Of a stretch of 64,000 nt of DNA, positions 8,980 through 64,000 are shown one piece after another. This stretch comes from an uncultured Verrucomicrobiae bacterium. GTDB lineage: Bacteria; Verrucomicrobiota; Verrucomicrobiia; Chthoniobacterales; UBA10450. Numbering within the stretch: the stretch's first letter is position 1; every line of letters begins with the position of its first letter. Under the pieces are notes generated by a model that did no database searches, was not told the DNA's origin, and saw only the letters and a program-made list of their open reading frames with translations. The position numbers were made by a program, and so were the translations under genes. Location: positions 704,001 to 768,000 of the forward strand of contig CAVSDR010000006.1 in the NCBI GenBank assembly GCA_963726745.1. The letters are read 5' to 3'.

Positions 8980-11900
8980 TTAAGGAGCGAGACTGACGTC
9001 GAGTTTATAGAAGCGGCGCTGCGCCACGGTGGGAGGCGAACCGGTGCCGGAACCATCATCTAGGTATTCCGTGGCGGTGCCGCTGCCAGCGATGTCGCCG
9101 CCAGCCTGCTGCCACGGACCGGTAGGACTGGCAGAGTAGAGAATGCGGTAGATGCGATCGCGCACCGTGCCGAACTGCAACCGCATCGCACTCGGCGAAT
9201 TGCGGGAAATAATCAATCCGAAGCTCGCGCGGTCCGCAACCGCGGGGTTGGTGCCCAGAATGTATTCCTCGTAGTTAGTCAGGCCGTCCTGGTCGAGGTC
9301 GCCACCGGCCCCGTTCGCCCCGGCGGGATCATTGGGATTCAGGCCATATTTGGTTTCGAACCAATCCGGCAAGCCGTCGCCATCGCTATCGTAGGTCAGT
9401 GCGTTACCGGTCTCGAAACCAAGCTGGAAGTTCATGCCGCCGGTGCCTTGCAATTCCACCTGCTGAGTCTGCGCCTGGTTCCGCATGGAGACGGTATCGA
9501 GAACGTTTGGGTCCTGGTCGGAAGCGGCCGCGTTGTAGTTTGCGCCGCTCAGTCCCGCGCCGCCGTAGCGCAGGTAAGCCCGGACAGTGCGTTCATTATT
9601 CGAGTTAAAAAGATTCACTTCCTGCGCACCGTTAACGACCAGTGGGCTTAGGTGGCTCTGGCCATATTTGAGCAGGTCGAGTAAGTCTGGCGATAGGCCG
9701 AAGCGAATGAACAGATTGCTCACGCCGGTGGTGATGTAACTCGCCGAAAGCGCGCTCTTATTCGCTGGCAAAGTGATCGACTTGGCGATTTTCCCATCGC
9801 TGCTGGTAAACTTCCACCCGTTTGCAACCGGGGCGACCGTGTAAAGACTGTTCACGTAAGCTGAGGAGCCGGTGCTGCCGGTCTGCGCATACCAATCCTT
9901 AAAGCCGGAGGTGCGGAAGGCATTTACCGCCGTGCCGGCAAAATTAGTCGCGCCTTCTTCCTCGCCTTCGACTCCCGCGTAGCTCGTCATGTTGCCGACT
10001 ACCTGGACGACGACGCCGGTATCGAGGTCGCGCAGCCAGGCTCCGGTCATGCGGCCGCCCAGGCGTTCGAACAAAGCCAATAACCTGTCGTTGTAGATTA
10101 GGTATTCATCCTCGCCGTCGAGGTCGACATCCGCCTGCTCGGTTACGCTCCGGCCGGCATAACTATTCTGGCCGGCCGCGGTCGCCCAGCTACTCACGCG
10201 TGCATAGATCGCCGCCATGCGGGTCTGCGCCTGCGCGGTTTTCGAGAAGCCGGCCAAGGCCTGGAAGCTGGTATCGGGACTGATGTACGCCCCGGTGCTG
10301 AACTTGTTCAAGTTCGCCGCGGGTTGGAGATGGAAGCCAGTCTCGAAGCCGGCTGCGTGCAGCACAGAACGACCCAAAGCCAGCAGCCCGCTCTGCGCCG
10401 GCGCGGCGGTGATCCCACTGACTGCCTGCCAGGCACCCGCCAGAATTCCGGTTCCGCCTAACGAGCCGTAAGCCGTCGGCAGGGCCACGCCGGCGCGCAG
10501 GTCGAACTTTTTCGCGCTCAGGCTCTCCTCGTAGGGCGAGCCGAAGTACCAGTTATCATAGTTTTCCTCGGTGGCGTAATCGACAAAGTCCTTGGCTACG
10601 AGCGGCAGGCTCGGGGAACCACGATTCACGGTGCCCCAGACGCCGGTGCTGCCGCCGTTGTAAGGCACCTGGTTCGACGCAATTTGATCCGGCGTGACCA
10701 GCTGAATCCAAGGGCGCGAAGCAAGCCAGCGGATGTTCTTGTCGTAGGCATCGGCGTTGGCCGCGACCGCGAAGTCCTCCCATTGATTCAGAAAAGTGAT
10801 CACCTGATCCTGCTGGCTATCGCGCGCCTTGCGGCTGAGTAACTGCCGCAGCAGGACGGGCGCGCCATTGTCGTCATTGACAAAAAGCTGGCTGCTGACG
10901 CCATCATTGATCACGAACGCCTTGGTATTGCCGATCTGGTTAACCCGGTAGCCATCGCTCCCGAGAGCCGAGCTCCGGCCAAACCACTTAAAGACATGGC
11001 GCATCTGGTCGACGAAAGTGTAGCCAAAGCCGGCGCCGCTGACCTTTTGCAAGACATCGGAACTGGAGACGCGCTCGGGCGTCCAGAGGACACTTCCGGA
11101 AGGGGCGCGCCCGTAGATGCTGCTGAGGAAATTCCCTGCGAGGGCAATGTTGTCGACGTTATAATGCGTGGAGAAGTAAGGCAGGATGTGATCGGAGAAG
11201 GTCGAGCCTAACAAGTCGACCGTGCCCGCAGCTGCGAGACTGCCGATGCGGGCGTTTAAGGCGGGGCCGTCGCGGAAAGGCCGGGGCGAAGCTGCGGCGG
11301 TCTTAGCCCACTGGATCGCGGACGCCAGCGTCGGCGTAACGTGCAAGGCCAGCGGCGTGCTGAAAGCTTCGTGCGCATCGAGTGGCCGATAGTAACCCGC
11401 CCCGGAGCCATTGCTGATCAAGTTCTGGGTTACCGACCCCGGCTGGATCGCCTGGTTGCCATGAATAATAGACATCACTTTGACGCGCTTTCCGCGGTCG
11501 TTATCCGCCTGAAGGCCGACCCAGGAGCTAAGGACGCTATTGGCACCGGTGATGTTCGCCTGGTCTTGGTAATAATCGGACGCGATCCAATCATTCCGGA
11601 TGGAATCGCGGATGTCGGAACGGCCGCCAATATCGCCGCCGCCGGCGGGGCTGTTCTGCGTGCCATCCTTGGTGGTGAAAACCTGGTAGATCAGGCGGCT
11701 GGCATCATTCCCATCCCAGCCGGCATCTTTCAAAGCCTGCCGGCTAATCGAAAACTCCACCGCGTCGAGGGTGGAATCGTAATAAGCTTTCTTGAAACCA
11801 TTCGTCGCGCTCTGGTCGCGCACGGTTACGCCATTGGCGAAGAGATCCTGGCCGATGCCGGTGGTGTGGGTGGGCGAGTTCTTGTCCCAAAGGTAGACTC

Positions 11901-21460: not shown

Positions 21461-21492
21461 CCGGCAACTTCTCCCGCGCCTAACGAGTCCTC

Positions 21493-22102
21493 ATGGAGCA
21501 AATCTTCTTCATCGCCCTGGTCGCGATCGTCGGCCTGGTGCGCTGGCTGGCGCAGAACGCCGAGAACAAAAGGAACGAGGCCCAGGCCACGAAGGAAAAG
21601 CCCGCCTCGGCCGCGCCCCTCGCCCGGCCCGCGGGCCAAACCGAGGAAGAGCGCGTGCGCAAATTCTTCGAGGCGCTCGGCGTTCCGCCTACCTCCGCGC
21701 CCCCGGCGCAGCCGTCGCGCCGCCGCGAGATCAAGCCGCAGGTGCAGCCGGCTGCCGAAACGCCGCTTCCAGCCGATCGATCCCTTTCCGGTCCCGCGCA
21801 CCGCTGCCGTCCCGCGCCCGGTCGTCGTCGTTCCCACCCCGTTCCCGGCGCCGATCGCCGCGGATTTGCCGAAAGCCGCCCGCGCTCCCTTGGCCCCTGC
21901 CATCTTTGAGGTGCGCGAGAGCGACGAGGTCGAAGCCGAAACTCACCGTTCCACCCCCACGGTTGCGCGGCCAGTCCGCGCGGCCCAGAGCTGGACCGAT
22001 CGCCTGGCGACCCCTGCCGGCCTGCGCGATGCCATCGTCCTGCGCGAGATCTTCGGCCCGCCGCGCAGCCTCCAGTCGCTCGACGGCCACTCGTTAGGCT
22101 AA
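21493..22102 (+). CDS. hypothetical Pro-rich membrane-anchored protein (frameshifted)
   Basis: N-terminal TM in 21493..21909; conserved-looking end LRDAIVLREIFGPPRSL in 21866..22102. Confidence 0.6.
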
Positions 22103-22106: not shown

Positions 22107-24314
22107 CTAGAGCGCGCGCACGCGGATACGCACCTCCCGGCGTTGGCCGGTCTTGGTGTCGGTCACGCTCAGCCGGTGCTCGCCCTCTTCGCCGAGGGCA
22201 AAGTCGCGGCCGTTTTCGTTCGTTAGGCGGAGCGAGGCGCTCTCCCAGCGCACGGCTTCCCCGCCGCTGGCCCCGAGCGGAATCCGCCGGCTCGAAGGCA
22301 CGTCGGGATCGAGCAGGTAAACCGCGTCTGGCAACGGCGAGACGATCCGAAATTCCTCGCCCAGCACCGCGCGCGCCCCCAGGAAATTCTCCGCACTCGC
22401 AAACCAGTCCGCATAATCAGCCGGCAACTTCACCCGCCCGCCCGCGTCGTAATCTTCCGCCGCCGCCAGCCCTGGCCGTTGCCCGGCGACGAATTTTTCC
22501 CGCACCCCACCGGCCGCGTTTTCCGCGAGCACCTTGCCGGTCAAAGGATCGATCTGCCGCTCGACCAAACCCGCCGGCGGCGCATACCAGCTCGTCCCGC
22601 GCTCCGCGTGCAATTTCTCGAAGATCGCATGCAGGATCGGCCCGGCGCCGGTCACCCCGGAGACCTCGTGCATCGGCGCGCCGTCGAAATTTCCCACCCA
22701 CACGCCGACGGTGAACTCCGGGGTGTAGCCGATCGCCCAGTTATCGCGAAAGTCGGTGCTCGTGCCGGTTTTGCAGGCTACCGGAAAATCGAAGCGCAGC
22801 GCCGAGTGAATCCCAAACGAGAGCGTGCGCGCGGCATTGTCGCTCAAGATGTCGGCTATTTGCCAGGCGAGCTCTGGCCGGGTGTAGCGCCGCGTAAACG
22901 TGGGCGCATCCGCCCGCAGGCGCCACGGCCGGTACTCGCCCAGGCGCGCCAGGCTGGCGTAAGCATTCGCGATTTCGAGCAGCCGGCCCTCGCAATTTCC
23001 CAGGGTCAGACCCAGTCCGTAAACCTCCGGCGCTTGCTCCAGACTCGTTAGGCCAACGGCTTGCAAGCGCGCCGCCAGCGCCGCCGGACCGCCGTTGGCT
23101 TGCAGCACTTTGACCGCCGGAATGTTCAGCGAACTGGCCAGCGCCGTCCGGTAAGTCACCGGCCCGTAACAACGGCGGTTGTAATTTTCTGGCCGATAAA
23201 AACCACCCGCTGCCGGGAAGCTGGCGCGCACGTCGGCCACGATCGTCGCCGGGGTCGCGCCCCGCTCGAGCGCGAGCAGATAAGTGAACGGCTTGAGCGT
23301 TGAGCCCGCGGAGCGCTTCGCCCAGGCGCCGTTCACCTGCCCGCTCCCGGGCGCGAAGTAGTCCGCCGAGCCGACGAGCGCGAGCACATCGCCACTGGCA
23401 TTGTCGAGCACGACCGCGGCGCCGTTGCGCACGTTTTGCTCGCGCAATTGCGCCAGCCGTTCCTGCAGGAGACGCTCGATCGCTTCGTTCAGCGGCAGGT
23501 CGAGCGTGGTCCGCACTTCGCCCGCGCCGGCCTCGAGCGGCTGGTTCAACAACAGGTCGGTGAAATGCGGCGCGCGGAAGCGGCGCCGCGGCGGGCGCAG
23601 GTGCAGCGGTTCCGCGGCCGCCATCTGCCAGCGCTCCCGAGACAGCCAGCCGTTCTCGTGCATCCGGCGCAGCACAAGTTGCTGTCTCTTTTGCGCGGCC
23701 GGAAGCGCGCGCTGCGGGTTGAGCTTGCGCGGATTCCGCGGCAAGCCGGCGAGGAGCGCGGCTTCCGCTTCGCTCAGGTCGCTCACGGGTTTGCCGAAGT
23801 AATAATCCGCCGCCGCGGCCAGGCCGAGGTTGAGATTGCCGAAGTCGACCCGGTTCAGGTAGGCGGCGAGGATTTGCTCCTTCGACCAGACTTGCTCGAG
23901 CCGGAGCGCGGTCAGCGCCTCGACTACTTTAGCCAGCAACGTGCGCGGGCGGCGCTGGCTAATTTTCACTAGCTGCTGCGTGATCGTCGACGCGCCGGAG
24001 GTGATGTGGCCGTGGGTGAGACCATTCGCAAGGGCGCGCGCCGTCGCCAGCCCGTCGACCCCGTGATGCGCGAAAAAGCGCTTGTCCTCGGCCGCGATGA
24101 TCGCCCGGACCACGTGCGCCGGGAGATCGGCCGCGGTGAGTTCGCGCCGGAAATGCTCCTCCGTGCGCGCCTCGCGCAGCGGCAGCCCGTTTCGATCCAG
24201 CAGCACCGTGCTCGCCCGCGGCGGCGCGACCAAAGCCGCCGGCAGCGGGAGGAAGCGCAGCGCCAGCCAGCAGGAGAGCGGCAGGACGAGCGTGCCCAGG
24301 AGAAGCCGCTTCAT
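22107..24314 (-). CDS. pbpC: penicillin-binding protein 1C
   Basis: EDKRF..HHGVD, GASTITQQ, GSTLKPF, SLN, KTGTS; ATGA overlap with the upstream alpha-2-macroglobulin gene. Confidence 0.9.
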   Translation of the reverse strand: MKRLLLGTLVLPLSCWLALRFLPLPAALVAPPRASTVLLDRNGLPLREARTEEHFRRELTAADLPAHVVRAIIAAEDKRFFAHHGVDGLATARALANGLTHGHITSGASTITQQLVKISQRRPRTLLAKVVEALTALRLEQVWSKEQILAAYLNRVDFGNLNLGLAAAADYYFGKPVSDLSEAEAALLAGLPRNPRKLNPQRALPAAQKRQQLVLRRMHENGWLSRERWQMAAAEPLHLRPPRRRFRAPHFTDLLLNQPLEAGAGEVRTTLDLPLNEAIERLLQERLAQLREQNVRNGAAVVLDNASGDVLALVGSADYFAPGSGQVNGAWAKRSAGSTLKPFTYLLALERGATPATIVADVRASFPAAGGFYRPENYNRRCYGPVTYRTALASSLNIPAVKVLQANGGPAALAARLQAVGLTSLEQAPEVYGLGLTLGNCEGRLLEIANAYASLARLGEYRPWRLRADAPTFTRRYTRPELAWQIADILSDNAARTLSFGIHSALRFDFPVACKTGTSTDFRDNWAIGYTPEFTVGVWVGNFDGAPMHEVSGVTGAGPILHAIFEKLHAERGTSWYAPPAGLVERQIDPLTGKVLAENAAGGVREKFVAGQRPGLAAAEDYDAGGRVKLPADYADWFASAENFLGARAVLGEEFRIVSPLPDAVYLLDPDVPSSRRIPLGASGGEAVRWESASLRLTNENGRDFALGEEGEHRLSVTDTKTGQRREVRIRVRAL

Positions 24315-27300
24315 CGCAGCCCCTGCGCGGAGACACGCTCGGTAGCCGTCGTCCCGAAGCGTTCCGGATGATACATCTCCTCGATCTTCGCCGCGGGCGC
24401 GAGCGCTTCGCCGGCGCAGACGACGCGCGCGAGGTAGCGCAGGGTGTAGCGACCCGGCCGGAGGACATCGGCAAAAAAGACTGCGCGATCCGTCGCGCAG
24501 CTCGGAGTAATCGCTGACCCACTCCGTGCCTAACGACTCGCCGGCGAGCGTCTCCTGCGACTTGAAGGCCGGGTTGATCGGCGCGAGCACGCTCGGCAGC
24601 GGATCCTCCAGTGCGAGGAAAGTCGCGCGCCGGCGCGCCTCCACCTCCAGGGTCACGAGAATGCGGTCGCCCACCCGCAGGTTTTCCGCCGGGCTCAATT
24701 TCCCGTCGGCGCCGATCTTCGCGTAACGTCTCGTTAGGCCATAGCCCTGGTCCTGGCGCGGCTGCTCCGCCAGCTTCGAACGCGCGGTGACCGTGGTTTC
24801 CGCATAAACTTTCCCGCCGTGACGCGTGATCATCAACGGTTGCGCAGAGCGCTGGCCTTCCAGCGGAAAGGTTAGGCTCACCCTGATCCTTTCCTGGTCG
24901 AGTTCGTAGGCGGCACTGGCGCCCGGCCAGCGCACTTCGCCGCTGGCTTCGCGCGGGCCGGTCTCGACCAGCCGCAGATAATTAGCCAGCGAGATCAGCG
25001 CCCAGGCATTGCTTTGCGTGGTCCCCCAGTGGCCGTTTTCCCGGCGGGTAAAAAGCTCGAGCGCGAGCTGGTCGACCCGCGGCGACTTTGGCGCGTGCCG
25101 CGTCCAGGCGAGCAACTGGAGCGCGTGCTCGCGCGTGACCGAACCGAACCATTGCTCGACGTAGCCTGCATCGGTCGCCGGGCCGCGGAGCAATTCCTCG
25201 ATCATCGACCGCGGGCCCTTCGCCTCGATCACCGCGAGCGCGACCAAGGCGCGATCTTCCGCGCTCAACTGCGCGCGCTTTTGAAAGAGCAAATCGTGAT
25301 ACGCCGGCTCCGCCTTGCCCGCGAGCGCGAGCGCATAGACCGCGAGGCAGCGATCCGACAAGCCGTAGCCGCTGCGCTCGCGCGCGGTCCCGCGGAGCTG
25401 CTCGCTCAGGTAGCGTTGCAACCGCGCGAACTCCGCCTCCGGCACCGCGAAGCCTTGCTGCTGCGCAAGGGTGAAGGCAATCGCTCCGTAGGCGCTGCCC
25501 CAAAGCATCGGCTCGCGGCCTCGCGGCCAATAGCTCAGGCCGCCGCTGCTGGTCTGCATCGAGAGCAGCAGACGCAGGCCGCCATTGACCGCCTCCGCGA
25601 TTTCGCCCTCCGGCCGGTTCGAGCTCCCGGAACATCCTCGCCCAGGTCGCGGACCGTGAGCCACGGGAGCAAACTCGAGGTCGTCTGCTCGACGCACCCG
25701 TAGGGATAATGGAGCAGCTGCCGCACGGCCTCGCCGAGATTGAGCACGCGCGTGCTCGCAAGATTCACCGTGACCTCGCCGTGGCCTTCGAGGATTTGGC
25801 CATTGGTGATCCGAAGCAGCTCAGCCGACTCTTTTTCCACGCGCTGCGTCTCGACCTGGCGGATGAGCGGCGCAGGATCACCCACCTGCACGATCGCTTC
25901 CACCGCGTCCAGGTTGTCGGCTAATTTCACCGCCCACTTCCAGTGCGCCTCGCCCGGTGCCCACGATCTCCACCGGGAAATCCACCGCGACCGAGCCACC
26001 CGCGGGCAGGTCGAGCTCGCGCCGCGTTTCGCCGGTGGCGCGCGCGGTTTCGTCGAGAAAGAGCTGCACCTCGGCCTTCCCGCCGACAGCAGTGGTGTTG
26101 TGCGCAACCGCGCGGAGCGTGAGCCGGTCGCCTTTATTAGCGAAGGCCGGCAGCGCGCTCTCGATCATGACCGGCTTGTTGATCTCGAAGGCCGACTGCG
26201 CGCTGCCAAACGCCCCCGCGCGCGTGACCGCCACCGCGACCAGCCGATATCTCGTTAGGCTATCGGGCGCGGCGAACTCTGCCCGCACCTTGCCCTGCGC
26301 ATCGGTGCGCAGGGTGGCGTTCCAAAACGGGCAGGCGACGAAGTTTTTCCGGAGGCCATTCAGCAAGGCCGGGCCGCCCTTGCCGTCGCCCACGAGGTAG
26401 CCCTTGTTCGCGAAATCTGCTTCCGCCATGTCCTCGCGCAGGAGCGTTGGCAGCGTCAAATTCGTGCTCACGCCGAGGCCGCGCGGCTGATTGAAAAACG
26501 CCAGCGGGTCGGGTGTTTCGTAGCCGGTCAGGCTGAGCACGCCTTCATCCACCGCATAGAGCGTGACCTCCGCATCGGCCGCGATTTGCCCGCGCCAATC
26601 GCGCACTTCCGCCTCCACTTGCACCGGGTCGTTAGGCCGTGCGCTCGGCGCACGCGGCTTGCACCGTGACCGTAAGTTGGTCGTCCGGCCGCGCGACCTT
26701 CAAGCTGGCGTAGCCGATGCGATACTCCGGCACTTTCATTTTGCGCGGGCTCTCCTCGGCTCCGCGCAGGAGCAGCACCGAGACGAAGACATTCGGAGCG
26801 TCGGTCGCGAGGATCGGCACCTGCACGGAAGGAGCGTTGCCCGTGAGGCGAACAACGAAAGAGCGCAGCACCTGGTCGCGTTCCACGGTCACCAGCGCAT
26901 CGCCGGCGATCGGAGTTTTAACCAGCAAGTTGGCGGTTTCGCCCGGCGCGTAGGTGTCCTTGTCGGAGACTAAATCGATCACGTAGGGGTTGCGATAATT
27001 CCAGTCGGTCTCCGCTTCACCCGAGACCTCGAAGACGAGCGAGGTCAACACCGGCCGGCCGCCGGCATCCTGCGCGCTCACCTCGAGGAGATACTCGCCC
27101 GGCGGACCCGCGAGCGCGTCGGCCAGCGCCGCGGTCTTCGGCTTGCGGTCCTCGCCCCGGCCGGGCGCGGTCAGGAGCTCGTGCTCCCAAAGTTTCTCGA
27201 GCTGCGGGGTGCTTTCGAATTCGCTCGTGTCGCCGGCGGTTGCGAGCCGGTTGGTCTGCCAGCGAATGCGCGAGACGCGCACGTTCGCCTTCGCCGGCTG

Positions 27301-41280: not shown

Positions 41281-41298
41281 GCCTAACGAGAATTAGAC
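41281..41298 (-). other. attI-like recombination site
   Basis: Minus strand GTCTAAT-TCTC-GTTAGGC: core site with an inverted L-like box, no attC hairpin, at the head of the array. Confidence 0.65.
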
Positions 41299-46215: not shown

Positions 46216-47366
46216 CTACGTGATCACGTAGTTGAGGCTGATCCATTGCCGCCCAGGGTTCCGGCTTGGGCCGCCGCAAGGCATGATCTCATTCGCGCGC
46301 ACTTGCAGGACGTCGACTGTTTCCGCGTCGTCTTCGGTGTCATCGCCGATCGAGCGCGTGGGCGGCACCGGCGGGACGGGCGCGACCGGCGGCACGGGCG
46401 CGATCGCGGGCAGGTCCTTTTGCTCGAGCTTTTCGTAACGCCCGCGCACTTCCGGCGGGAGCTTGGCGCGGTCTTCCTCGGTGTCGACCGGTCCGCTGAA
46501 GAGCAGACGGCCCTGCGGGTCTTTGGCCGTGAGCACTTTTTTGTCGCCCACCATCTCGAGGTTCAATTCTCCCTGCGCGTCGCTGTAGGCGATCTTCGCC
46601 TTGCCGAGATCGATCCGCGTGGTCTTGAGCGCGCCGTTATCGTTCGAAGTAATGATGCGCACTCCGCGGGCCGCGGCCCGGGCGTCGCGGGCGATCTGGC
46701 GGGCTTCGGTGCGGGCCCGGCGCGCTTCTTCCCGCGCCTGGCGCACGGTCTGGTCGATCATCCCGAAATTCATCTCCTTCATCTGGTCGCCTAACGACTC
46801 CAATTCCTGCTCCATCCCGGTCTCGAACTGGTAGCCGAAGTGGTTCCCGGGCCCGCGAAAGTTCGGGCCGCGCCGCGACCGCACCTCGCGTTTGCCGAGC
46901 TTCGCGCTCAATTTCGTCTCCGCGCCTTTGCGCAGGACGGTGAGCGTGACCGTGGCGCCTTCGCTTTGGCTACGGACTAACTTCGAGAGCTGGTTGGGCT
47001 CGGTCAGGACCTGGTCGTTGAACATCTTCAGGATGTCGTTTTGCTGGAGGCCGGCAGCGGCCGCGGGCCCATCCGGGACGACATACTCGACCACCAGGCC
47101 GAAACCTTTCGCGAGCCCGAGCTGATCCGCGACCACGCCGGGGACTTCCGAGGTTTCCACCCCGAGAAAAGTAACCGGCACTTTGGCGCGGCGATCGTCG
47201 CTCTCGTCGTCGTCCTTGTCTTTGTCTTTATCCTTGGTGCGCTCGTTAGGCACGGGCGCGACTTGCGGCGCGGCGCGGGCGCGGGTGGCGGCGGCGGGTT
47301 TTGGGCGGAGGCGGCCAGCGGCAGAAGGCTGGCGGCGGTGAGGAGAGCGAGGCAGGTGGCTTTCAT
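46216..47366 (-). CDS. secreted PDZ-domain protein (frameshift near 47255)
   Basis: Signal peptide MKATCLALL; FLGV...GLVVEYVVPDGPAAAAGLQQNDIL. Confidence 0.75.
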
Positions 47367-52911: not shown

Positions 52912-53470
52912 ATGAATGGGCAGGAACTGGAGACGAGGAGCGAAGCGGCGAGCGAGCCGGCTGACCTTTCGGCGCAGCTCGCCGAGCTTCACGAAATGAG
53001 CTACGGCTGGGCGTTGAGTTGCTGTTCGCCAATGCCGCCGACGCGGAGGATATTTTGCAGACGTTTACCAGAAAATTTTGCAGGGCCGGGCAGTTTCGAC
53101 GGCCGCTCCACGCTCAAGACCTGGCTCTTCGCCGTGATCCGCAGAACGGCGGCCGAGAACGGCGGCGGCGCTATTTCCGGCTGCTCCGATTGGGCGGCTA
53201 TGCGCGCGAACACGAAGACGATTTCGAGCCGGCAGAACGCGGCGCCGGCCTGGAGAACGCCGAGCGCCTGGGAATTTTCGCCAAGCCTTGGCGAAACTGC
53301 CGCGCCGCCAACAGGAGGTGCTCCATCTGGTTTTTTACCAGGACCTGACGATCGAGTCCGCCGCGCAGGCGATGGGCGTCTCGTTAGGCTCGGCCGCACG
53401 CACTACGAACGCGGAAAACGCCGGCTGGGCGAACGGCTGCGCACCTCGGAGCAATTTCATGAGGCTGAAG
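52912..53470 (+). CDS. ECF sigma-70 factor (several frameshifts)
   Basis: DAEDILQ, FDGRSTLKTWLF.V, LPRRQQEVLHLVFYQDLTIE.AA..MGVS.GS across frames. Confidence 0.75.
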
Positions 53471-54417: not shown

Positions 54418-56721
54418 CTAAAAGCGCATCTTCACGCCACCGTAGTAATTCCGGCGCGACGCGGGGACGATGCCTTCGTCGCGCACTTCGGCCCAGAAAT
54501 CTTCGTCGAAGAGATTGTTGATCCCGGCGAAGACTCCGAAGCGCTCCTCCCGGCCGAAGTTATACTCCGCGGTCAGGTCCCAGACGGTGTGCGCCGGGAT
54601 CTCGCGTTGGAAGGTGTTGTTCGCGTCGGCAAAACTCTGGTCGACATACGTCCCGATGAGGCCGGCCTTGATCGTTTCGTGGAAGTGATAAACGCCGCCG
54701 ACCTTAACCAGGTAATCCGGCGCGTAGCTCGGGGTGAAGCCGCTGTTTGGCCCAGAGGTAAACTCGGCATCGAGCAGGGTGATGTTGCCGTAGAAGTTGA
54801 GCTTGCCGAAAGGCGATTCGCTCCCGCCATGGAGCACCGCGAGCAGGTCGACTTCGGCTGCGGCCTCGATCCCGCGGAAGCGCGCATCGCCCACGTTCCC
54901 GGTGGAGGCGGCGCCATTAGCCAGCGAGATGTCGCCCACCTGGTCCTCGAAATTGAAGAAGAATCCGCTCACGTCGAAACTCAGGTAAGGCAAAGGCTTC
55001 CCGCGCAGGCCGAGCTCAAACTGAAGCGAGCGCCCTTCTTTCAGGTCGCCATTGACCACGCCGTTCGCGCTGGTCGGCACGAGCTCGCCATAGGTCCGCG
55101 GGCGGTAAGCCTGCGCCACTGTCCCGTAAACTTCGAGGCGCGGCGGGCCTTGCGGGGTCATCACCGGGACGATGTTTTTGCCATCGCTGCCGGCGGTGGT
55201 GGGCGCGACGCCTTCGAGGAGGACGTAGTTTGCGCCGAGGCCGAAGAGCGGGATGAAATTGAAGTCCGAGCTCGAGTTCAAGGTCGCGCGGCTGATGTTG
55301 AACTCCTCCTCCACCCCTTGGTCGAGGAACTCCAGCCGCATCCCTGGGGTGATCGAAAGCCGCCCGAACTTGAAGCGGTTCTCGGCGAAGATCGCGCCGT
55401 CCCAGGTCTCGCCCGTGTTCAGGTTGCGCAGTTGCCCGTCGCTCGCGCCTGGAGTGGCGCCGCGTTTGTCCGTCCGGTCCTGGACCGCGTGGTAGAAATA
55501 CAAGCCGCCGGCAAAAGTCGAGGTGTCGCCGCCTAACGAGTAATCATGCCGCAGGCGCAGCTCCGCGCCCTCGGTCCAATCCTCGCGATCCTGGATCGAG
55601 TTCGTGGCCGCCGCGCCGCCGCTCGGCCGCGTGCCGAATCCGCCGCCGCGCTGGCGCTGGCTATAGCGCGAGAGGTAGCCGCCCCAAGCCTTCACCTCGA
55701 GACGCGTCTGCTCGCCCAGGAGCTTCTGGTATTCCAGGGTCGCGAAGTAGCGCTCCAGGCGGAAGAGATCGAAGAAGCGCGTGCTCGCGTTCCGATCGTC
55801 CTCGTAGTAGCGGGAGTTCGCCGGGTTCACCGCTTCGCGCCGACGCAAGCCGCCGGGTTCGCCGTGCTCTTCGTAGTAGGCGTCGAGCGTCAGGATAAAG
55901 CGGCTGGAATCGTCCACGTCCAGGACCAGCTTCACGCTCCCGGCATTCAAATCGTAGCCGCCGTTCGCCTCGCGAAAACCTTCGCGCTCGCGGTGATCGT
56001 AGTAGGCGTAGTAGCTCGCCGCGCCCAGCTTCCCGCTCAGCGAAGTGAAATTTTGGAAGAGCTCGTCGGAGCCGTAGAGATTCTTGGTGAAGAACTCAAA
56101 CGGCACATCGCGCCGCGGCATCTTGCTGATGAAATTGATCGCGCCGCCGGGTTGCGGACCGAACTGCAGCGAGGCCCCCGCGCGCAGGAACTCGATCCGC
56201 TCGACCGCGTCCAGGATCGGCGTGTAATGCGCTTCCGGGAAGCCGAACTGCTCGTTCTTGATCGAGACGCCGTCCTTCAAAATTTGGGTGAACTCACTGC
56301 GCTGCGAGTCGAGCCCGCGGTAGCCGAAATTGATGATCGGCGACGACGGCTCCTCGCTCACGAGCAGACCGGGCGTGGTCGCGAGCACCTCGCGGTAATT
56401 GTTGTTCGCCACGCTCGGGAATTCCTCCGGCTTCACGAACGAGCTCTTCTTGCCGGAGTTAATCCGCGTCCCTTCCACTTCCGGCAGCGCGGGATATTCC
56501 ACCGGCTCGACTTCGAAGCCGCGCACGACCACGTGCTCCAGGTCGACCGTGCGGCCGCTCACCTGCGCGAGCGTGATCTCGCTGTCTGTTTGCGGAAGGC
56601 GCTCACCCTGGGCGTTAAACGACGGTCGCGCTTCGGTCTCGCCAAGCACTGCGGTGATCGCACAAAAAGGCGTGGCGGCGACGAGCGTGAGGGGGAGAAC
56701 CGAGGAAAACAACGAGCGCAT
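54418..56721 (-). CDS. TonB-dependent receptor (FecA-like)
   Basis: Plug RIEFLRAGASLQFGPQPGGAINF; GINNLFD; C-terminal F. Confidence 0.9.
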   Translation of the reverse strand: MRSLFSSVLPLTLVAATPFCAITAVLGETEARPSFNAQGERLPQTDSEITLAQVSGRTVDLEHVVVRGFEVEPVEYPALPEVEGTRINSGKKSSFVKPEEFPSVANNNYREVLATTPGLLVSEEPSSPIINFGYRGLDSQRSEFTQILKDGVSIKNEQFGFPEAHYTPILDAVERIEFLRAGASLQFGPQPGGAINFISKMPRRDVPFEFFTKNLYGSDELFQNFTSLSGKLGAASYYAYYDHREREGFREANGGYDLNAGSVKLVLDVDDSSRFILTLDAYYEEHGEPGGLRRREAVNPANSRYYEDDRNASTRFFDLFRLERYFATLEYQKLLGEQTRLEVKAWGGYLSRYSQRQRGGGFGTRPSGGAAATNSIQDREDWTEGAELRLRHDYSLGGDTSTFAGGLYFYHAVQDRTDKRGATPGASDGQLRNLNTGETWDGAIFAENRFKFGRLSITPGMRLEFLDQGVEEEFNISRATLNSSSDFNFIPLFGLGANYVLLEGVAPTTAGSDGKNIVPVMTPQGPPRLEVYGTVAQAYRPRTYGELVPTSANGVVNGDLKEGRSLQFELGLRGKPLPYLSFDVSGFFFNFEDQVGDISLANGAASTGNVGDARFRGIEAAAEVDLLAVLHGGSESPFGKLNFYGNITLLDAEFTSGPNSGFTPSYAPDYLVKVGGVYHFHETIKAGLIGTYVDQSFADANNTFQREIPAHTVWDLTAEYNFGREERFGVFAGINNLFDEDFWAEVRDEGIVPASRRNYYGGVKMRF

Positions 56722-57351: not shown

Positions 57352-58426
57352 CCAATTCCCGCGCGCGTTCGCGCAAAAACTCCGCCGGCCGCGCGAGCGC
57401 GTCGGCTATTTCCACCGGCGGCCGCGCCACTTCGTAGACCGCGTCGAACACGCTTCCGGCGGCGATGTCTTCCACGGTTCCGACAATCGCGAAGACCCGC
57501 TTCCCGGCAGCACGCGCCATGGCGGCCACGCCCGCCGGCGCCTTCCCCTCGGCGGTCTGCGCATCGAGCCGGCCTTCGCCGGTAATCACGATGTCGGCCG
57601 CGCGAATCGCCTCCCGGAGGCCGATCTGCTCCGCCACGATCTCAAATCCCGGGCGCACGGTCGCGCCGCAAAAAGTCATCAACCCGAAGCCCAAACCACC
57701 CGCCGCGCCCGCGCCCGGCGTCGCTCGAAAGTCGCGCCCGAAAGTTTCCGCCGCCACGTCAGCCAGTCGCTCCAACGCGCGCTCCAAGGTTGCTGTCTGT
57801 TCCGGCGTCACGCCCTTCTGCGGACCAAAAACGCGCGTCGCCCCACGCTCGCCGAGGAGGGGATTGCGCACGTCCGCCGCGGCTGTCATTGGCGGCAACT
57901 TCAAGCCGCGCGGCGCCTCGATTCGCTGGAGCCGCGCGAGCCCCGGGACGCGCTCGCCGATCTCCGCGCCCTTCGCATCGAGCAAGCGAAAACCGAGCGC
58001 GCGCGCCAGGCCGGACCCGCCGTCATTGGTCGCGCTCCCACCTAGGCCGATGATGATCTTCTCAACCCCGAGCCCGATCGCAGCCAGCAACATCTGCCCG
58101 GTGCCAAAAGTGGAAGCTGCCAGCGGATGGTGCTCGTTAGGCCGCAACCGCCACAGCCCGGAGGCCTGGCTCATCTCCAGGACCGCGACGCGCTCCGCCG
58201 CCACGCGATAGCGCGCCGTAACCGCACGTCCCAGCGGATCGCACACCGTGCATTCCTGTTCCTCGCCGCCAATCGCTTCCGCCGTTCCCTCCCCGCCATC
58301 CGCCACCGGCAGGCAGACAATCTCCGCCGCCGGCAAAACCTCGCGCAATCCCTCAGCGATTGCTGCCGCCACCGCCGCCGCGCCTAACGAGCCCTTGAAC
58401 TTATCCGGCGCGATCAGGATGCGCAT
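57320..58426 (-). CDS. glycerate kinase
   Basis: APDKFKGSL, ADGGEGT, GLGGSATNDGG, FGPQKG, GAAGGLG, TGEGRLD. Confidence 0.92.
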   Translation of the reverse strand: MRILIAPDKFKGSLGAAAVAAAIAEGLREVLPAAEIVCLPVADGGEGTAEAIGGEEQECTVCDPLGRAVTARYRVAAERVAVLEMSQASGLWRLRPNEHHPLAASTFGTGQMLLAAIGLGVEKIIIGLGGSATNDGGSGLARALGFRLLDAKGAEIGERVPGLARLQRIEAPRGLKLPPMTAAADVRNPLLGERGATRVFGPQKGVTPEQTATLERALERLADVAAETFGRDFRATPGAGAAGGLGFGLMTFCGATVRPGFEIVAEQIGLREAIRAADIVITGEGRLDAQTAEGKAPAGVAAMARAAGKRVFAIVGTVEDIAAGSVFDAVYEVARPPVEIADALARPAEFLRERARELANEQLLRSAP

Positions 58427-58433: not shown

Positions 58434-59882
58434 CTAGCCTCCAAGCTTCCGCGCAAGGATCTCGCCGACGAGCTGCGGGTTCGCCTGCCCCTTCGAGAGC
58501 TTCATCACCTGCCCCTTGAGGAAATTGAGCGAGGCCACATTCCCCGCGCGATAATCCGCCGCCGGCTTGGGGTTCGCCGCGATCGCCTCGTCGCAGAAGG
58601 CCTCGATCGCGCCGGCATCGCTCACTTGCTCGATCCCCTTTTCGCGCACGATTTCGGCCGCGCCCTTTCCGCTGGCGAACATCTCCGCGAAAACTTCCTT
58701 CGCCTGTTTGCCGCTGATCGTCCCGGCCTCGATCAGGTTGACTAATTCGTCGAGCGACTCGGGCGTCACCGGGCAATCGGCGATCGTTTTGCCGGAATTA
58801 GCCAGCGCATTCTGGAGCTCGTTCAGGATCCAGTTGGCCACGCTCTTGGGCTTCCGCGCGCCGCGGGCCGCGCGCTCGAAGTAGTCGGCTAACGACAAGT
58901 CGCTGGCTAAAACGCCGGCGTCGTACGCGCTCACTTCATACTGCGCGATGAAGCGCGCCTGCTTCGCCGCGGGCAACTCCGGCACACGCGCGCGCATCTC
59001 CTCCAGCAGCGGTGCGGTGTGCACCGGGACGAGGTCGGGATCGGGGAAATAGCGGTAGTCATGCGCGCTTTCCTTCGTGCGCATGAGGAAGGTTTTGCCG
59101 GCGGCGTCGTCCCAACCGCGCGTCTCCTGCGCGAGTGTTTCGCCCGCGGCCAGGGCCGCCGCCTGCCGCTCGATCTCGTAGGCTAAAGCCCGGCGCACTC
59201 CGCTGATCGAGTTCATGTTCTTGATCTCGATTTTCGCGCCTAACGACTCCTGTCCCGCCGGCCGCAGCGAGACGTTGCAATCGCAGCGGAGCTGGCCCTT
59301 TTCCATATCCGCATCGCTCACCCCGCCATAGATCAGGATTTGCCGGAGGGCGGTCAGGAAAGCGAAAGCTTCCTCCGGCGTTTCGATCGTCGGCTCGGTC
59401 ACGATCTCCATCAAGGGCGTGCCCGCACGGTTGAAATCGATTCCGCTCTGGCTCTCGAAGTGGAAGCTCTTGGCCACATCTTCCTCCAGATGAATTCGGA
59501 CTAACGACACCTGCTTCTCGCGCGCTTTCTTTTGCGCGTCCTTCGGGAAGGCGAGCGGATGCAGCGTCACCCGGCCGCCGGTGCAAAGTGGCTCGTCGTA
59601 TTGCGTGATCTGATAATTCTTCGCGACGTCGGGGTAGAAGTAATTCTTCCGGTCGAATTTGCTCACCGCCGGGATCGCACAGTCGAGCATCAAGCCAGTG
59701 AGCACGGTCAGCCGCAGCGCCTCGTGATTGATCACTGGCAAGGCGCCCGGCAAACCAAGACAGGTCGGGCAGGTCTGCGTGTTTGCCTCCGCGCCGAAGC
59801 CGGTCGCGCAGGCGCAGAACATCTTCGAGCGCGTGCGCAATTGCACGTGCACCTCGAGGCCGATGGAGGTCAGATACTTCAC
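58434..59882 (-). CDS. gatB: Asp/Glu-tRNA amidotransferase subunit B
   Basis: IGLEVHVQL, FDRKNYFYPD, HLEED, NRAGTPLMEIV, YRYFPDPDL. Confidence 0.95.
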   Translation of the reverse strand: MKYLTSIGLEVHVQLRTRSKMFCACATGFGAEANTQTCPTCLGLPGALPVINHEALRLTVLTGLMLDCAIPAVSKFDRKNYFYPDVAKNYQITQYDEPLCTGGRVTLHPLAFPKDAQKKAREKQVSLVRIHLEEDVAKSFHFESQSGIDFNRAGTPLMEIVTEPTIETPEEAFAFLTALRQILIYGGVSDADMEKGQLRCDCNVSLRPAGQESLGAKIEIKNMNSISGVRRALAYEIERQAAALAAGETLAQETRGWDDAAGKTFLMRTKESAHDYRYFPDPDLVPVHTAPLLEEMRARVPELPAAKQARFIAQYEVSAYDAGVLASDLSLADYFERAARGARKPKSVANWILNELQNALANSGKTIADCPVTPESLDELVNLIEAGTISGKQAKEVFAEMFASGKGAAEIVREKGIEQVSDAGAIEAFCDEAIAANPKPAADYRAGNVASLNFLKGQVMKLSKGQANPQLVGEILARKLGG

Positions 59883-60730
59883 GGCTTCTCCTTCTCCTCT
59901 TCCGCGAAGCCAAGCGCTTTCCGGAGGTCGAAGCGCTTGACCGCGCGCGCGATTTCCGGGTCGTTGGCCACCTCGATCAAACGGGGATCTTGCAGGAGCT
60001 GCCAAAATTTTCCCTCAGCCAGCAGGCGCTGGATTTCGGGGTCGGCGCGGAGCGCGAGGATCTTCGGGTGATCAGCCACTTCGGCGACGCCGGGATAGGA
60101 GAGGAAGCGCGAGGCGCGCTCCGGCTTGCTGAAGGTTTCGCCCAGTTTAGCCAGCGTTTCGTAGACGCCCGCGGGGAGGATATCGGCCTGCCGCACGACT
60201 TCGCCCACCGGTCCGAGCTCGATCGAATTTTTCAGCCGCGCCATCGAGGCCACAAGGTCTTCGCTTGACCGCGGGGTAGCCGCGCGGGTTTGCGCTTCCG
60301 CGACGGCGCCGATCGAGCGGATCCCGATGACCAGCAGCCAGATGAAAAAGATTCCGAAGAACAAGCCAAGGACCGCGCCGGTGATCCCATAGACCATCCG
60401 CACGAGCGAAGAACCCTGCTGCGCGGTGCGCTTGAAGAGGATCGTGCCGACCGCGTTGATGATGGAGTAGACCACCGCCGCGAGGATGATCCCGCCGACC
60501 GCGGAGATGACGAAATCCGGCACCTGCAAAACTGGTCGCAGGAAAGGCAGCAGGAGTCCTCCGCCGAAAAACGCCGCTGCATAAGCCGCCAGGAGCGCGC
60601 CCAGCCTAACGAGTTGTCGGGGAAGCCCGAGGCGCCAGCCGCGCACGACCTCGAAGAGGAGCAGGACGACCGCGAAAGAAACAAAAACCGTCTGCCAAAG
60701 CGGCGAGCCGGCGATGAAGCTTTCCTTCAT
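59879..60730 (-). CDS. CvpA-family membrane protein
   Basis: RGWRLG, four TM helices, GAVLG. Confidence 0.7.
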
Positions 60731-61818
60731 CTCGCTGGCAAATTCACCGCGCGCTGGCGTAGCGCATGGTCGCAGAGGACGAGCGCCGCCATCGCCTCGA
60801 CCATCGGCACGGCGCGCGGCAGGACGCAAGGATCGTGGCGTCCGCGGGCCGCGAGCGTCGTCTCCTCGCCGGAAGTGGTCACGGTCTGCTGCGGGCGCGC
60901 AATCGTGGCCGTGGGCTTGAAAGCGACCCGGAAAACGATGTCCTCGCCGTTGCTGATCCCGCCCTGCACACCGCCGGAGCGGTTCGACTGCGTCCGCACC
61001 GCACCGCCGCGCATTTCGAAAGCGTCGTTATGCTCCGAGCCTTTCATCCGCGTGGCCGCAAACCCGGAGCCAAGCTCGAAGCCTTTCGTCGCTGGCAGGC
61101 TCAACATTGCTTTCGCGAGGTCGGCCTCGAGCTTGTCGAAGACCGGCTCACCCAGGCCCGCGGGCACGCCGCGCAGGACGCACTCAATGATGCCGCCTAA
61201 CGAGTCGCCTTCCGCGCGTGCTTGCTGGATGGCCTCGATCATCCGCGCGGCGGCGTCGCGGTCGGGACAGCGGACGGCATTGGCTTCCACCTGTGCGCGC
61301 GTGATCGCCGCCGGATCGAGCGCAGCCGCGATCGTGTGCACGCTGGCGACGTAAGCCACGATCTCCAACTCGCTGGCTAAATGAGCCAGCACTTTGCGCG
61401 CGACCGCGCCGGCAGCGACGCGGCCAATGGTTTCGCGCGCGGAAGCGCGGCCGCCGCCCTGCCAGTTTCGAATGCCGTATTTCGCCTCGTAGGTGAAGTC
61501 GGCATGCGACGGGCGAAAAGTTTGCGCCATCTCCGCGTAGGCCTCCGGCCGCGCGTCGGTGTTGCGGACCAGGATGGCGATCGGCGTGCCGAGCGTGTGG
61601 CCCTCGAAAATGCCGGATAAAATCTCCGCGCGATCGGCTTCTTTACGCTGGGTCACGATCTCGCTCTGGCCGGGACGCCGGCGATCCAATTCGACCTGCA
61701 GGTCCGCTTCGCTTAGGGCGATCCGCGGCGGGCAGCCATCGATGACCACACCCACGCCGCCGCCGTGGGATTCGCCCCAGGTGGTGATGCGGAAAAGGTG
61801 GCCAAAGGTGTTCGGCAT
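60727..61818 (-). CDS. aroC: chorismate synthase
   Basis: GESHG, RPSHAD, RASARET, GGISNG, FKPTAT, GRHDPC. Confidence 0.97.
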
Positions 61819-61832: not shown

Positions 61833-62993
61833 CTACATCGCGGCAAAGGCCGTGCGGAGATCGTCCTTCAAATCCTCGACGTCCTCGACGCCGACACTTA
61901 ACCGGACGAGCGAATCAGTGATCCCGAGCTTGGCCCGCGTTTCCGGCGGGATCGAGCCGTGGGTCATGAGCGCCGGATGATTAATCAGGCTCTCGACGCC
62001 GCCTAACGACTCCGCGAGCGAGAAGAGGTGAGTGTTCTCGAGAAAACGCCGGGTGCCGGCGAGATCGGTGTCGAGCACGACCGTGACCATGCCGCCGAAG
62101 CCGCGCATCTGGCGCTTGGCCAACTCGTGCTGCGGATGGTCAGGCAGGCCCGGGTAGAAGAGCTTCGCGAGCTTCTTCTCGCTGGTGAGCCACTGTGCGA
62201 TCTCGAGGGCGTTTTGCGAATGTCGCTCCATCCGCAGGGCCAGCGTCTTCAAGCCGCGCATCGCGAGGAAGCTGTCGAACGGCCCGGCGATCGCGCCGAC
62301 CGCGTTCTGCAGGAATTGCATCTGGTCGGCTAATTCCTGGTTTTCCCCGACAACCGCGACGCCGCCAACCATGTCCGAGTGGCCGTTGAGATATTTCGTG
62401 GCCGAATGGATGACCATGTCGAAGCCAAGCTCGAGCGGCCGCTGCGCCCATGGGCTGGCGAAAGTGTTGTCCGAAACGCTGACCGCGCCGTGCTTCCGCG
62501 CGATCTGCGCGACCGCTTCCAGGTCGATCAATTTCAGCAGCGGATTGCTCGGCGTTTCCACCCAAACCATGCGCGTGTTCGGCTTGAAATGCTGCTCGAT
62601 CGCGGCCGCGTCCGACATGTCGATGAAGCTGAAATCGAGATTGGCCGAGCGGCGGCGGACTTTCTCGAAGAGGCGGAACGTCCCGCCATAGAGATCGTCG
62701 CTCACGAGCACGTGCGAGCCGCTCTCGAGAGTGTCGAGCGCGGTCGACATCGCGGCCAATCCGGAGGCAAAGGCCCAGCCGCGGGTGCCGCTCTCGAGAT
62801 CGGCGACGCACTTTTCGTAGGCCAGGCGCGTGGGATTGATCGAGCGCGAGTAATCGTAGCCCTTGTGCCGGCCCGGGCTTTCCTGGACGTAGGTCGAGGT
62901 CTGGTAGATCGGCGTCATGATCGCGCCCGTAGACGGATCGGGGGATTGGCCGGCGTGGATCGCGCGCGTGGCGAAGTCGTGCTGCTTCTTCAT
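61833..62993 (-). CDS. cystathionine gamma-synthase/lyase
   Basis: [47 protein letters not shown]. Confidence 0.93.
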
Positions 62994-63072: not shown

Positions 63073-64000
63073 CTACGGCAGGGTCAAATCGTCGGCGGCC
63101 GGCGGCGTCTTCGACATCTGCAGCCGCAGGTAAGCGAGCAGGTCGGTGCGCGTGATCAGGCCGAGGAATTTCTCGCCGTTCATCAAGATGGCGACGCGGC
63201 CGCGATCGAAGACCGCGAGCAGGTCGGAGATCTTCGCGGTCGGCGAGAGCGTCTCCAGCCGATCGGTCATGGCGCTGCCTACTTTTTCGTTAAAGGCGGC
63301 CGCGTCCTGCGTCACTTTCACCAAGAGGTCGGACTCGTCGAGAATGCCGACGGCGCGGTTGGTCTCGTCGACCACCGGGAGCTGCGAGACGTCGGCGGCG
63401 CGCATGCGCTTAAAGGCCGTGAGCAAGCTGTCGTTAGGCCCCACGGAGATGACTTCGCCCTTCTCGTGCCGGCGCGAGATCAGGTCGCTCAGGTCGCCGT
63501 GCATCGGGCGCTTGGTGAAGCCCTGCTCGGCCATCCAGAAGTTGTTGTACATCTTCGAGAGGTATTTGTTGCCGGTGTCGCAAACGAAGGTGACCACGCG
63601 TTTCGGCTTGGTCTGCTGGCGGCAATAGCGGAGCGCGGCGGCCACGAGCGTGCCGGTGGAGGAACCGCCGAGAATGCCTTCCTGGCGCAAGAGTTCGCGC
63701 GCGACCGCGAAGCTTTCCGCGTCCGGGATTTCGAAGGCGTCGGTCACGTAGGAGAGGTCGGCGATATCGGGAATGAAATCCTCGCCAATGCCCTCAACCG
63801 CCCAACTGCCGGCTTCGGTCATCTTCTTGGTCTTGATGTACTCGTAGAGGATCGAGCCCTGCGGGTCGGCCAGGATCATCTCGATCCCGCGGCGCGGGCG
63901 GCAACGGGAGAAGAATTTCCCGAGTCCGCTCAACGTCCCGCCGGAGCCAACGCCAACTACGACCGCGTCCACTTCGTGGCGCATTTGCTCCCAGATTTCC
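63073..64000 (-). CDS. cystathionine beta-synthase with CBS domains (5'-truncated by the window edge)
   Basis: GVGSGGT, EGIGEDF, EGILGGSSTG, CDTGNKYLSK, C-terminal CBS pair. Confidence 0.9.
   Translation of the reverse strand, partial: EIWEQMRHEVDAVVVGVGSGGTLSGLGKFFSRCRPRRGIEMILADPQGSILYEYIKTKKMTEAGSWAVEGIGEDFIPDIADLSYVTDAFEIPDAESFAVARELLRQEGILGGSSTGTLVAAALRYCRQQTKPKRVVTFVCDTGNKYLSKMYNNFWMAEQGFTKRPMHGDLSDLISRRHEKGEVISVGPNDSLLTAFKRMRAADVSQLPVVDETNRAVGILDESDLLVKVTQDAAAFNEKVGSAMTDRLETLSPTAKISDLLAVFDRGRVAILMNGEKFLGLITRTDLLAYLRLQMSKTPPAADDLTLP

Follow-up and report, generated by a model that had tools for sequence, protein, structure and literature searches.

To our knowledge, the only genome-wide "self" words with a known reader are those of two proteobacterial families, the DNA uptake sequences (DUS) of the Neisseriaceae and the uptake signal sequences (USS) of the Pasteurellaceae. 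HIP1 (GCGATCGC), the hyper-abundant word of cyanobacteria, is a palindrome linked to methyltransferases. In integrons, GTTRRRY is the core site, found as the R′ box of attC and as the crossover point of attI, and crossover falls at G|TT. Here we describe a non-palindromic 9-mer, TCGTTAGGC, that a first-pass annotation had noticed in a 64-kb window of DNA from an uncultured Verrucomicrobiae bacterium (the window is the whole stretch analyzed: 64,000 nucleotides, positions 704,001 to 768,000 of contig CAVSDR010000006.1). In the genome of this bacterium (G000; 3.41 Mb, 7 contigs, 94.7% complete) and in its family, the 9-mer is best read as a family-wide genomic "self" word with a strict core, TCGTTAG, followed by any base and then mostly C, kept by a sequence-specific force on DNA.

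The G000 genome carries 1,312 exact copies of the word, 67-fold more than the 19.7 expected from an order-3 Markov model, at 0.32 to 0.53 per kb on each contig. Its 10-mer form, CTCGTTAGGC (820 copies versus 6.1 expected), is the commonest 10-mer of the genome. According to our own gene calls, which are based on open reading frames (ORFs; 2,843 genes, 86% coding), 947 of the 1,312 copies (72%) lie wholly within genes, 208 are intergenic, and 157 overlap gene ends. Genic copies fill all four frames that the word leaves open: 427 are in sense frame 0, where the word reads Ser-Leu-Gly (SLG), 99 in sense frame 1, 220 in antisense frame 1, and 201 in antisense frame 2. Thirty within-gene synonymous shuffles gave 7.2 sense and 13.6 antisense copies (maxima, 14 and 22) versus 526 and 421 observed; the word is therefore enriched under both nulls that the first-pass annotation had proposed as checks, codon shuffled (∼21 versus 947 genic copies) and Markov.

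The word spells 427 of the 746 SLG tripeptides of G000 (57%), in a genome where TTA makes up just 2.9% of Leu codons, and the SLG tripeptide is itself inflated (746 versus 411 to 550 for its permutations). At 24 of 36 SLG-class words, the amino acid differs from that at the orthologous site of a word-poor relative, G002. The word also supplies the stop codon of 182 genes, as TAG in 78 and, on its other strand, as TAA in 104. Together, the excess over codon shuffles, the inflation of SLG, the amino acid changes, and the word-derived stops argue that the force acts on DNA, overriding codon choice and often the protein. The first-pass annotation had likewise placed the constraint on DNA and not on protein, a view with which the codon-shuffle null and the conservation of silent sites inside the word (below) agree. 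As a separate observation, the three stop codons are near-equal in our rough gene calls (TAG, 978; TGA, 938; TAA, 927), which is unusual for 64% GC.

The strict part, TCGTTAG, occurs 2,025 times in G000 versus 194 expected. When position 9 is C, position 8 is most often G (1,312), followed by C (240), T (123), and A (80); at position 9 itself, C is followed in frequency by G (134) and T (52). A T is accepted at position 2, making TTGTTAGGC the commonest core-side neighbor (121 copies versus 8 expected), and the remaining single changes are at or below expectation (for example, TCATTAGGC, 0 versus 9, and GCGTTAGGC, 3 versus 23). Upstream preferences are weak (W at −5, S at −4 and −3, A at −2, C at −1) and alike in genic and nongenic copies. 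Since no flank conservation extends beyond those five bases, the word is not part of a longer repeat; a repetitive extragenic palindrome or miniature inverted-repeat transposable element was ruled out, given the 72% genic copies and the unconserved flanks. The commonest 12-mers of the genome stem from a tandem hexamer, GTTGGC/GCCAAC (∼145 copies).

We used the reversed word as the enrichment control for each genome. Within the genus of G000, the 10-mer was at or above control in 24 of 24 sampled genomes (51 to 1,549 copies versus ∼13 to 57), and it numbered 0 to 14 copies in sixteen other families of the order. In a phylum sample of 301 genomes, the 8-mer CGTTAGGC beat the control in only two, G000 and G344, both members of the same family (f1), and was depleted elsewhere; the first-pass annotation had called the word lineage specific, and in this sample it is confined to one family. 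Within family f1 (121 genomes from 36 genera, in assemblies of 1 to 800 contigs), the 9-mer exceeded twice the control in 104 genomes, with a ratio of 0.4 to 55.6 (median, 4.9) and a maximum of 4,336 copies in 3.2 Mb. Ratios cluster by genus, being high in g162, g184, g163, g1, g177, and g18 and at background in g165, g172, g17, and g182, and the density of one and the same word varies 100-fold between genera. The word is the same throughout the 36 genera, with no dialect seen: dialect words were sought in 400 kb of word-poor G002 and rejected, as there was no other hyper-abundant word and the 9-mer was still present at 22 dispersed copies versus 0.9 expected. Six genomes flagged as unpublished (G001, G008, G042, G396, G400, and G407) enter the tallies only, and no conclusion rests on them. 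Among the literature matches listed, judged by title and the start of the abstract, we found no description of the word, whose letters retrieve primers only, and nothing relevant on DNA uptake sequences in Verrucomicrobia or on competence, transformation, or integrons in Udaeobacter, in line with the first-pass annotation, which knew of no description. Of the public sequencing runs, the best matching carried 0.14 and 0.05 of the sampled words, on short contigs from mixed relatives.

Comparison of orthologous sites shows that the words are long-lived and protected at silent positions. Relatives of G000 are 67 to 82% identical to it in DNA. At 13 word sites of the window, the word is kept at 5 of 9 aligned sites in G024 and at 4 of 9 in G013, both word rich, versus 1 of 10, 0 of 11, and 1 of 11 in the word-poor relatives G002, G005, and G018, which at several sites encode the same SLG as TCGCTCGGC or AGCCTGGGC. 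We compared a closer trio from genus g162 (G476, G463, and G429; 10 to 13% apart) over 120 kb. Words of G476 were identical at 48 of 64 orthologous sites in G463 (flank divergence, 9.6%) and at 47 of 68 in G429 (13.2%); by our arithmetic, flank rates would predict 40% and 28% identical words, respectively. Nonshared sites mostly differed by one or two bases. Third codon positions in SLG-frame words had changed in 2 of 48 cases, versus 144 of 960 and 204 of 960 flanking ones (Fisher P = 0.035 and 0.0027), so that silent positions inside the word change 3.6 to 5 times less than flanking ones. With G429 as the outgroup, 18 of 96 ancestral words were lost versus 32.6 expected from the flank rate, or about half. 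By inspection, we identified three clear gains in G476, requiring 1, 2, and 4 to 5 changes. The G476 word at C7:579531 (L157-L192) differs at 4 to 5 of its 9 bases from both close relatives, themselves alike, on a short branch; this single case is possibly an import by recombination or a multibase event.

Copies lie on all G000 contigs in similar numbers per orientation (631 forward and 681 reverse). Orientation is correlated neither with GC skew (rho, −0.01) nor with gene strand (rho, −0.02) in this assembly of 7 contigs with weak skew. Copies keep apart at short range, gaps of <200 bp accounting for 2.5% versus 7.5% for random scatter. No orientation class is enriched among close pairs in G000, and inverted pairs, considered as proto-attC sites or terminators, show no excess (2 to 3 pairs of <100 bp per orientation class). 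Although the GC content of the word is lower than that of the genome, its density climbs with local GC: 10-kb bins under 0.59 carry 0.02 copies per kb, and bins at 0.65 to 0.67 carry 0.56. Low word density marks foreign-looking DNA in G000: the largest word-free stretch (35 kb, C7:60030-95400; GC, 0.593) is a polysaccharide/O-antigen cluster. Genes of that cluster encode Wzy, Wzz, DegT-type aminotransferases, and glycosyltransferases. Elsewhere, eight same-strand words at C6:250463-254022 were considered as a second array and rejected, this being ordinary coding DNA without an attC array.

Over its two strands, the window has 33 exact copies, whereas 100 shuffles that preserve dinucleotides gave a mean of 0.41 and a maximum of 3, none of them reaching 33. 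Twenty-six copies lie outside a cassette array (32573-41281), the plus strand reading GCCTAACGA in 15 and TCGTTAGGC in 11, and the array adds 7 further exact copies. The first-pass annotation had counted the 26 by hand, and we recovered each at the position and on the strand that it gave; 19 of them lengthen to CTCGTTAGGC, agreeing with its statement that most do, and the three near-matches it saw all read TCGTTAGCC (31916, 57345, and 58887). Its assumed GC of 65% is about right for the host part of the window, whose 4-kb bins range from 0.58 to 0.67, and the gene names it used hold for gatB (58434-60005), aroC (60727-61818), an actP-like symporter (42129-43799), and an alpha-2-macroglobulin gene (26632-29640). 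The exact copies, with strand and context, are as follows.

10456..10464, minus strand: sense frame 0 (Ser-Leu-Gly) in a 2671-aa ORF (8980-16995); sole copy in the low-GC first 20 kb
21478..21486, minus strand: overlapping ORFs adjoining the FloA gene
22091..22099, plus strand: TAG of the word is the stop of ORF 21387-22097
22220..22228, plus strand: antisense frame 1 (RLTN) in a PBP1C/macroglobulin-C-terminal ORF (22107-25697)
23045..23053, plus strand: antisense frame 1 (GLTS) in ORF 22107-25697
24528..24536, minus strand: sense frame 0 (SLG) in ORF 22107-25697
24731..24739, plus strand: antisense frame 1 (GLTR) in ORF 22107-25697
26252..26260, plus strand: antisense frame 1 (SLTR) in ORF 25878-26624
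26629..26637, plus strand: complement TAA closes the macroglobulin ORF (26632-29640), with a frameshift just upstream of the word
27763..27771, minus strand: sense frame 0 (SLG), alpha-2-macroglobulin
29371..29379, minus strand: sense frame 0 (SLG), alpha-2-macroglobulin
29928..29936, minus strand: outside the gene calls made here
32573..32581, minus strand: attC right end (R′ box), cassette array
34362..34370, minus strand: attC right end, cassette array
35473..35481, minus strand: attC right end, variant attC GGGGTCGTTAGGC
36674..36682, minus strand: attC right end, cassette array
37766..37774, minus strand: attC right end, cassette array
40771..40779, minus strand: attC right end, cassette array
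41281..41289, minus strand: array head, within the attI-like CGTCTAATTCTCGTTAGG, which heads two other small arrays in G000 as well; no attC upstream
43065..43073, minus strand: sense frame 0 (SLG), sodium:solute symporter (42129-43799)
43184..43192, plus strand: antisense frame 1 (SLTS), same symporter
43370..43378, minus strand: sense frame 1 (LVRQ), same symporter
46789..46797, minus strand: sense frame 0 (SLG), PDZ-domain ORF (46216-47253)
47243..47251, plus strand: antisense frame 2 (VPNE), same PDZ-domain ORF
53381..53389, plus strand: outside the gene calls made here; inside listed ORF 52912-53826
55531..55539, minus strand: sense frame 0 (SLG), TonB-dependent receptor ORF (54418-56721)
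58134..58142, plus strand: antisense frame 2 (RPNE), glycerate kinase (57320-58456)
58382..58390, minus strand: sense frame 0 (SLG), glycerate kinase; the same site has the word in G018, G013, and G024
59238..59246, minus strand: sense frame 0 (SLG), gatB (58434-60005)
60604..60612, minus strand: outside the gene calls made here, between gatB and aroC
61195..61203, minus strand: sense frame 0 (SLG), aroC (60727-61818); the same site has the word in G013, G002, and G024
62001..62009, minus strand: sense frame 0 (SLG), Cys/Met pyridoxal phosphate enzyme (61833-62993); SLG of word-poor relatives is AGCTTGGGC or AGCCTGGGC
63431..63439, plus strand: antisense frame 2 (GPND), gene running past the window end

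Two features of the window stand apart from the distribution of the word. The alpha-2-macroglobulin frame breaks (26600-26700) ∼20 bases upstream of the word at 26629, and the protein resumes in a different frame; either the gene is a genuine pseudogene or the assembly has a one-base error here. Positions 1 to 20000, with lower GC (0.59 to 0.61), the 2671-aa ORF (weak GH57 match only), an 1124-aa ORF, and one word, are likely acquired DNA.

The word coincides with an integron recombination site. Between 32.3 and 41.3 kb, the minus strand of the window is a cassette array with attC sites of the form GCCTAACCA ... GTCGCTSATCTTGTTCTCGTTAGGC; an nhmmer profile built from 15 of these sites found 25 in G000, 17 of them in the window array. 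Cassette starts in the array alternate between TTAGGC and TTAGAT. Three array heads in G000 (window 41281-41360, C4:149616, and C3:632371) share the attI-like sequence, with no attC upstream and no integrase adjacent. In the window, the attI-like head is preceded by two short hairpins; no integrase adjoins the array, the ORFs by its head lack a Pfam match, and the next gene is the symporter. The word contains the core GTTAGGC and equals the right end of the array attC sites and of the attI-like heads over 10 to 12 bases (TTCTCG|TTAGGC). By this identity, the word amounts to the last 9 to 10 att bases fused to the opening bases of the cassette that follows, straddling G|TT. The first-pass annotation had recognized the cassette array but missed that the word is the attC/attI-like right end of that same array. 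That the commonest word of the genome should match the att end of its own arrays by chance is unlikely, at less than about 1 in a thousand by our rough estimate. About 98% of word copies (1,312 versus 25 attC hits) have no attC hairpin, cassette, or nearby integrase, and nonarray copies have no conserved attC-like flanks beyond five bases. In G000, TIGR02249 (intI) gave no match above the cutoff, and tblastn with IntI of the family found just Xer-like genes and one 54-residue remnant. This IntI-like remnant, at C2:58733-60493, adjoins two attC sites; the locus is probably a decayed integron platform.

By analogy with the known uptake signals, we tentatively favor the reading, at a probability of roughly 0.38, that the word is a DUS/USS-like signal maintained by sequence-specific molecular drive through a putative reader. 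We rank a drive by uptake and recombination first because the abundance, strand symmetry, even spacing, exclusion from foreign DNA, sharing across the family, and silent-site conservation of the word are as in USS and DUS. Under such a drive, double-stranded DNA would acquire the word at any place where the encoded protein allows. A putative DNA-binding reader, most plausibly part of a type IV pilus/ComEC/DprA uptake route, would prefer word-carrying fragments, and word-bearing alleles would replace word-less ones by homologous recombination. Since every local integron cassette ends in the word, the reader would also favor cassette DNA. Uptake-type genes are present in G000 (ComEC, DprA, three secretins, and six PilT-family ATPases); genes of these types are widespread in nontransformable bacteria too, and the competence genes do not discriminate between the readings. 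The first-pass annotation had proposed looking for competence genes and tyrosine recombinases: ComEC, DprA, and Xer-like genes are there, and canonical ComEA and intI were not found. Some family members encode a protein of ∼310 aa that combines a nuclease-like domain with a ComEA-type helix-hairpin-helix (HhH; L152, L153, and L154), which could be an extracellular-DNA processing protein; its G000 orthologue (C4:17254-17847) keeps the nuclease part without the HhH. The nuclease-HhH gene occurs in 22 of 24 genomes at a word ratio of ≥15 versus 41 of 97 below, but word-less g165 has it too, in 7 of 8 genomes (genus-level rho, 0.11). For cassettes, one report describes their recruitment into a chromosomal integron by natural transformation (PMC12614218).

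Several results weigh against the uptake reading. In the polarized g162 trio, 0 of 42 conserved one-mismatch neighbors had turned into the word; with no such gains, and with losses about half of those expected, recent positive drive is not demonstrated. Canonical ComEA was not found in G000, where TIGR00426 gave no match and HHH_3 only a half-domain match of 29 bits, and the HHH_3 protein of the family is the secreted nuclease-HhH fusion, not a classic ComEA. ComEC, which 115 of 121 family genomes encode (8 of 8 in word-less g165), is near-universal; it does not track the word and is uninformative as a marker. Inverted-pair terminators of the Neisseria kind are not present in G000. Finally, an arbitrary uptake bias leaves unexplained why the word is the end of an integron crossover site, the same end being found in attC sites of word-less relatives.

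That identity is what two integron-based explanations address, each of which we consider unlikely. In one, the crossover site TCG|TTAGGC would have been co-opted as a family-wide chromosomal tag, recognized on any DNA by a putative reader, perhaps a receptor for uptake or perhaps a protein that descends from the integron recombination system or works together with it. If so, the chromosome and every circulating cassette would share one password, coupling self-recognition or uptake to cassette traffic. The other, to which we give a similarly low likelihood, would make the words secondary attI- or attG-like sites recognized by the integrase of the integron or by a tyrosine recombinase related to it, built up by abortive strand exchange with repair toward the att core or as favored cassette landing pads. 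Besides the match to attC right ends and attI-like heads in G000, the latter draws on the reach of the att end: G028, from another family of the order and without the genome-wide word, carries this attC family with an identical end, as do word-less f1 genera (two g165 genomes, for example, have 21 and 14 sites), and CGTTAGGC ends attC sites in a record titled Blastocatellia. The att sequence therefore did not arise from the genome-wide spread and either predates it or is independent of it. Integrons are also unusually common in family f1 (of the 121 genomes, 73 have intI and 101 have this attC family), and both components are commoner in word-rich genomes: at ratios of ≥15 versus <2, at least one attC site is present in 24 of 24 versus 11 of 17 genomes and intI in 18 of 24 versus 5 of 17. 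Against word ratio, attC gives a Spearman rho of 0.25 and intI a Mann-Whitney P of 0.03, all of these values being uncorrected for kinship or completeness. At the genus level, the intI correlation drops to a nonsignificant rho of 0.14, and we rejected intI, attC count, and the nuclease-HhH gene as markers of word density, their weak trends being gone or nonsignificant by genus (rho, 0.14 and 0.11). Word-rich G024, like G000 with its 1,312 words, has no intI match. Among intI-bearing genomes from many phyla (50 of 80 IntI loci), only two exceeded 3-fold control and a third reached 1.8-fold, all three from records titled Chthoniobacterales, so integrons alone are not sufficient; the 80 loci included no Gemmatimonadota record. 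A variant end, TCGTTAGAT (the GTTAGAT type), makes up 7 of 15 aligned array attC ends, and its 7 copies in the genome are all in this array; as it has not spread, any genome-wide reader is pickier than the cassette system. We also know of no tyrosine recombinase chemistry that writes a 9-mer without cassette insertion. One preprint bears on both sides, describing insertion of cassettes by integrases at many double-stranded genomic sites and an attG consensus of only GWT (10.1101/2022.09.11.507474).

The remaining explanations set integrons aside. Each copy could be a cis-selected binding site of an abundant chromosomal protein (in nucleoid organization or as a self/non-self nuclease discriminator), with no uptake involved; the sharp specificity, silent-site conservation, short-range avoidance, depletion from foreign-looking DNA, and use of one word across 36 genera would equally follow from a selected site. 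We nevertheless think this rather improbable, since selection at each site must outweigh amino acid changes at about two-thirds of SLG-class sites and the 100-fold range in density sits better with a drive whose strength varies than with a function that is essential. We know of no nucleoid or partition protein that needs >1,000 exact genic 9-mers, the parS, matS, NBS, and SBS sites numbering in the tens. A repair- or methylation-linked bias, as proposed for HIP1, would invoke a methyltransferase with a mismatch-specific endonuclease, or other biased repair, that turns near-matches into the word. The word does contain CpG, and some one-mismatch neighbors are depleted, with TTGTTAGGC the commonest on the core side (121 versus 8) and its mirror product, TCATTAGGC, absent (0 versus 9). 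Such a bias is nonetheless quite improbable: Vsr was not found in G000, the sole C5 methyltransferase gene sits in the word-free, low-GC end of contig C5, very-short-patch repair corrects one position and not nine, and the identity with the integron site would go unexplained. A short, frequent, non-palindromic word also brings to mind polar recombination or segregation signals such as Chi or the FtsK-orienting polar sequences (KOPS), a very improbable match here: the absence of skew or strand polarity (631 versus 681 copies; rho, −0.01 and −0.02) refutes it as far as a 7-contig, weak-skew assembly allows, and 67-fold enrichment is far beyond that known for Chi. Assembly or base-calling error at a modified motif, suggested by the one frameshift just upstream of the word at 26629 and named by the first-pass annotation as what would undo its claim, we rejected, leaving it next to no probability. 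Enrichment recurs in 104 of 121 family genomes, whose assemblies differ widely in quality, the word stands at orthologous sites in different species, and split genes are not in excess, a same-strand gene following at once after 45 of 182 word-derived stops versus 810 of 2,656.

Whichever force maintains it, an abundant soil family holds up to 4,336 copies of one exact 9-mer, and in G000 that force respells 57% of SLG tripeptides and changes proteins. Should the word prove to be an uptake signal, it would be the first known beyond the Proteobacteria, and natural transformation would have to be frequent in a soil group that is dominant and hard to cultivate. For its identity with the attC/attI crossover, we found no published model that offers an explanation; the identity provides a testable link of uptake or self-recognition with cassette capture. 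In practice, the word marks host versus foreign DNA and can aid binning in this family.

Compared with DUS and USS, the word is likewise short and non-palindromic, present at about one copy per 0.7 to 2.6 kb equally on both strands, with copies in every open frame as well as at the ends of genes, an even short-range spacing, and few copies in foreign DNA. It is also family-wide with varying density, conserved at orthologous sites, and turned over mostly by single substitutions. It differs in its host phylum, Verrucomicrobiota (records titled Chthoniobacterales), a group for which we know of no transformation and no receptor; in the lack of a canonical ComEA (G000), of dialects across 36 genera, and of inverted-pair terminators; and in its coincidence with an integron recombination site. 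Like the integron core, it straddles the G|TT crossover with its strict part, TCGTTAG, but most of its copies lack an attC hairpin, the GTTAGAT variant has not spread, and the published attG consensus is just GWT (10.1101/2022.09.11.507474). With HIP1 it shares the character of a hyper-abundant, exact genic word that overrides codon usage, whereas HIP1 is palindromic and the present word asymmetric, and G000 yielded no Vsr. Chi and KOPS are also short, over-represented, asymmetric words, but those are replication skewed and enriched a few-fold, whereas the word described here is unskewed and enriched 67-fold.

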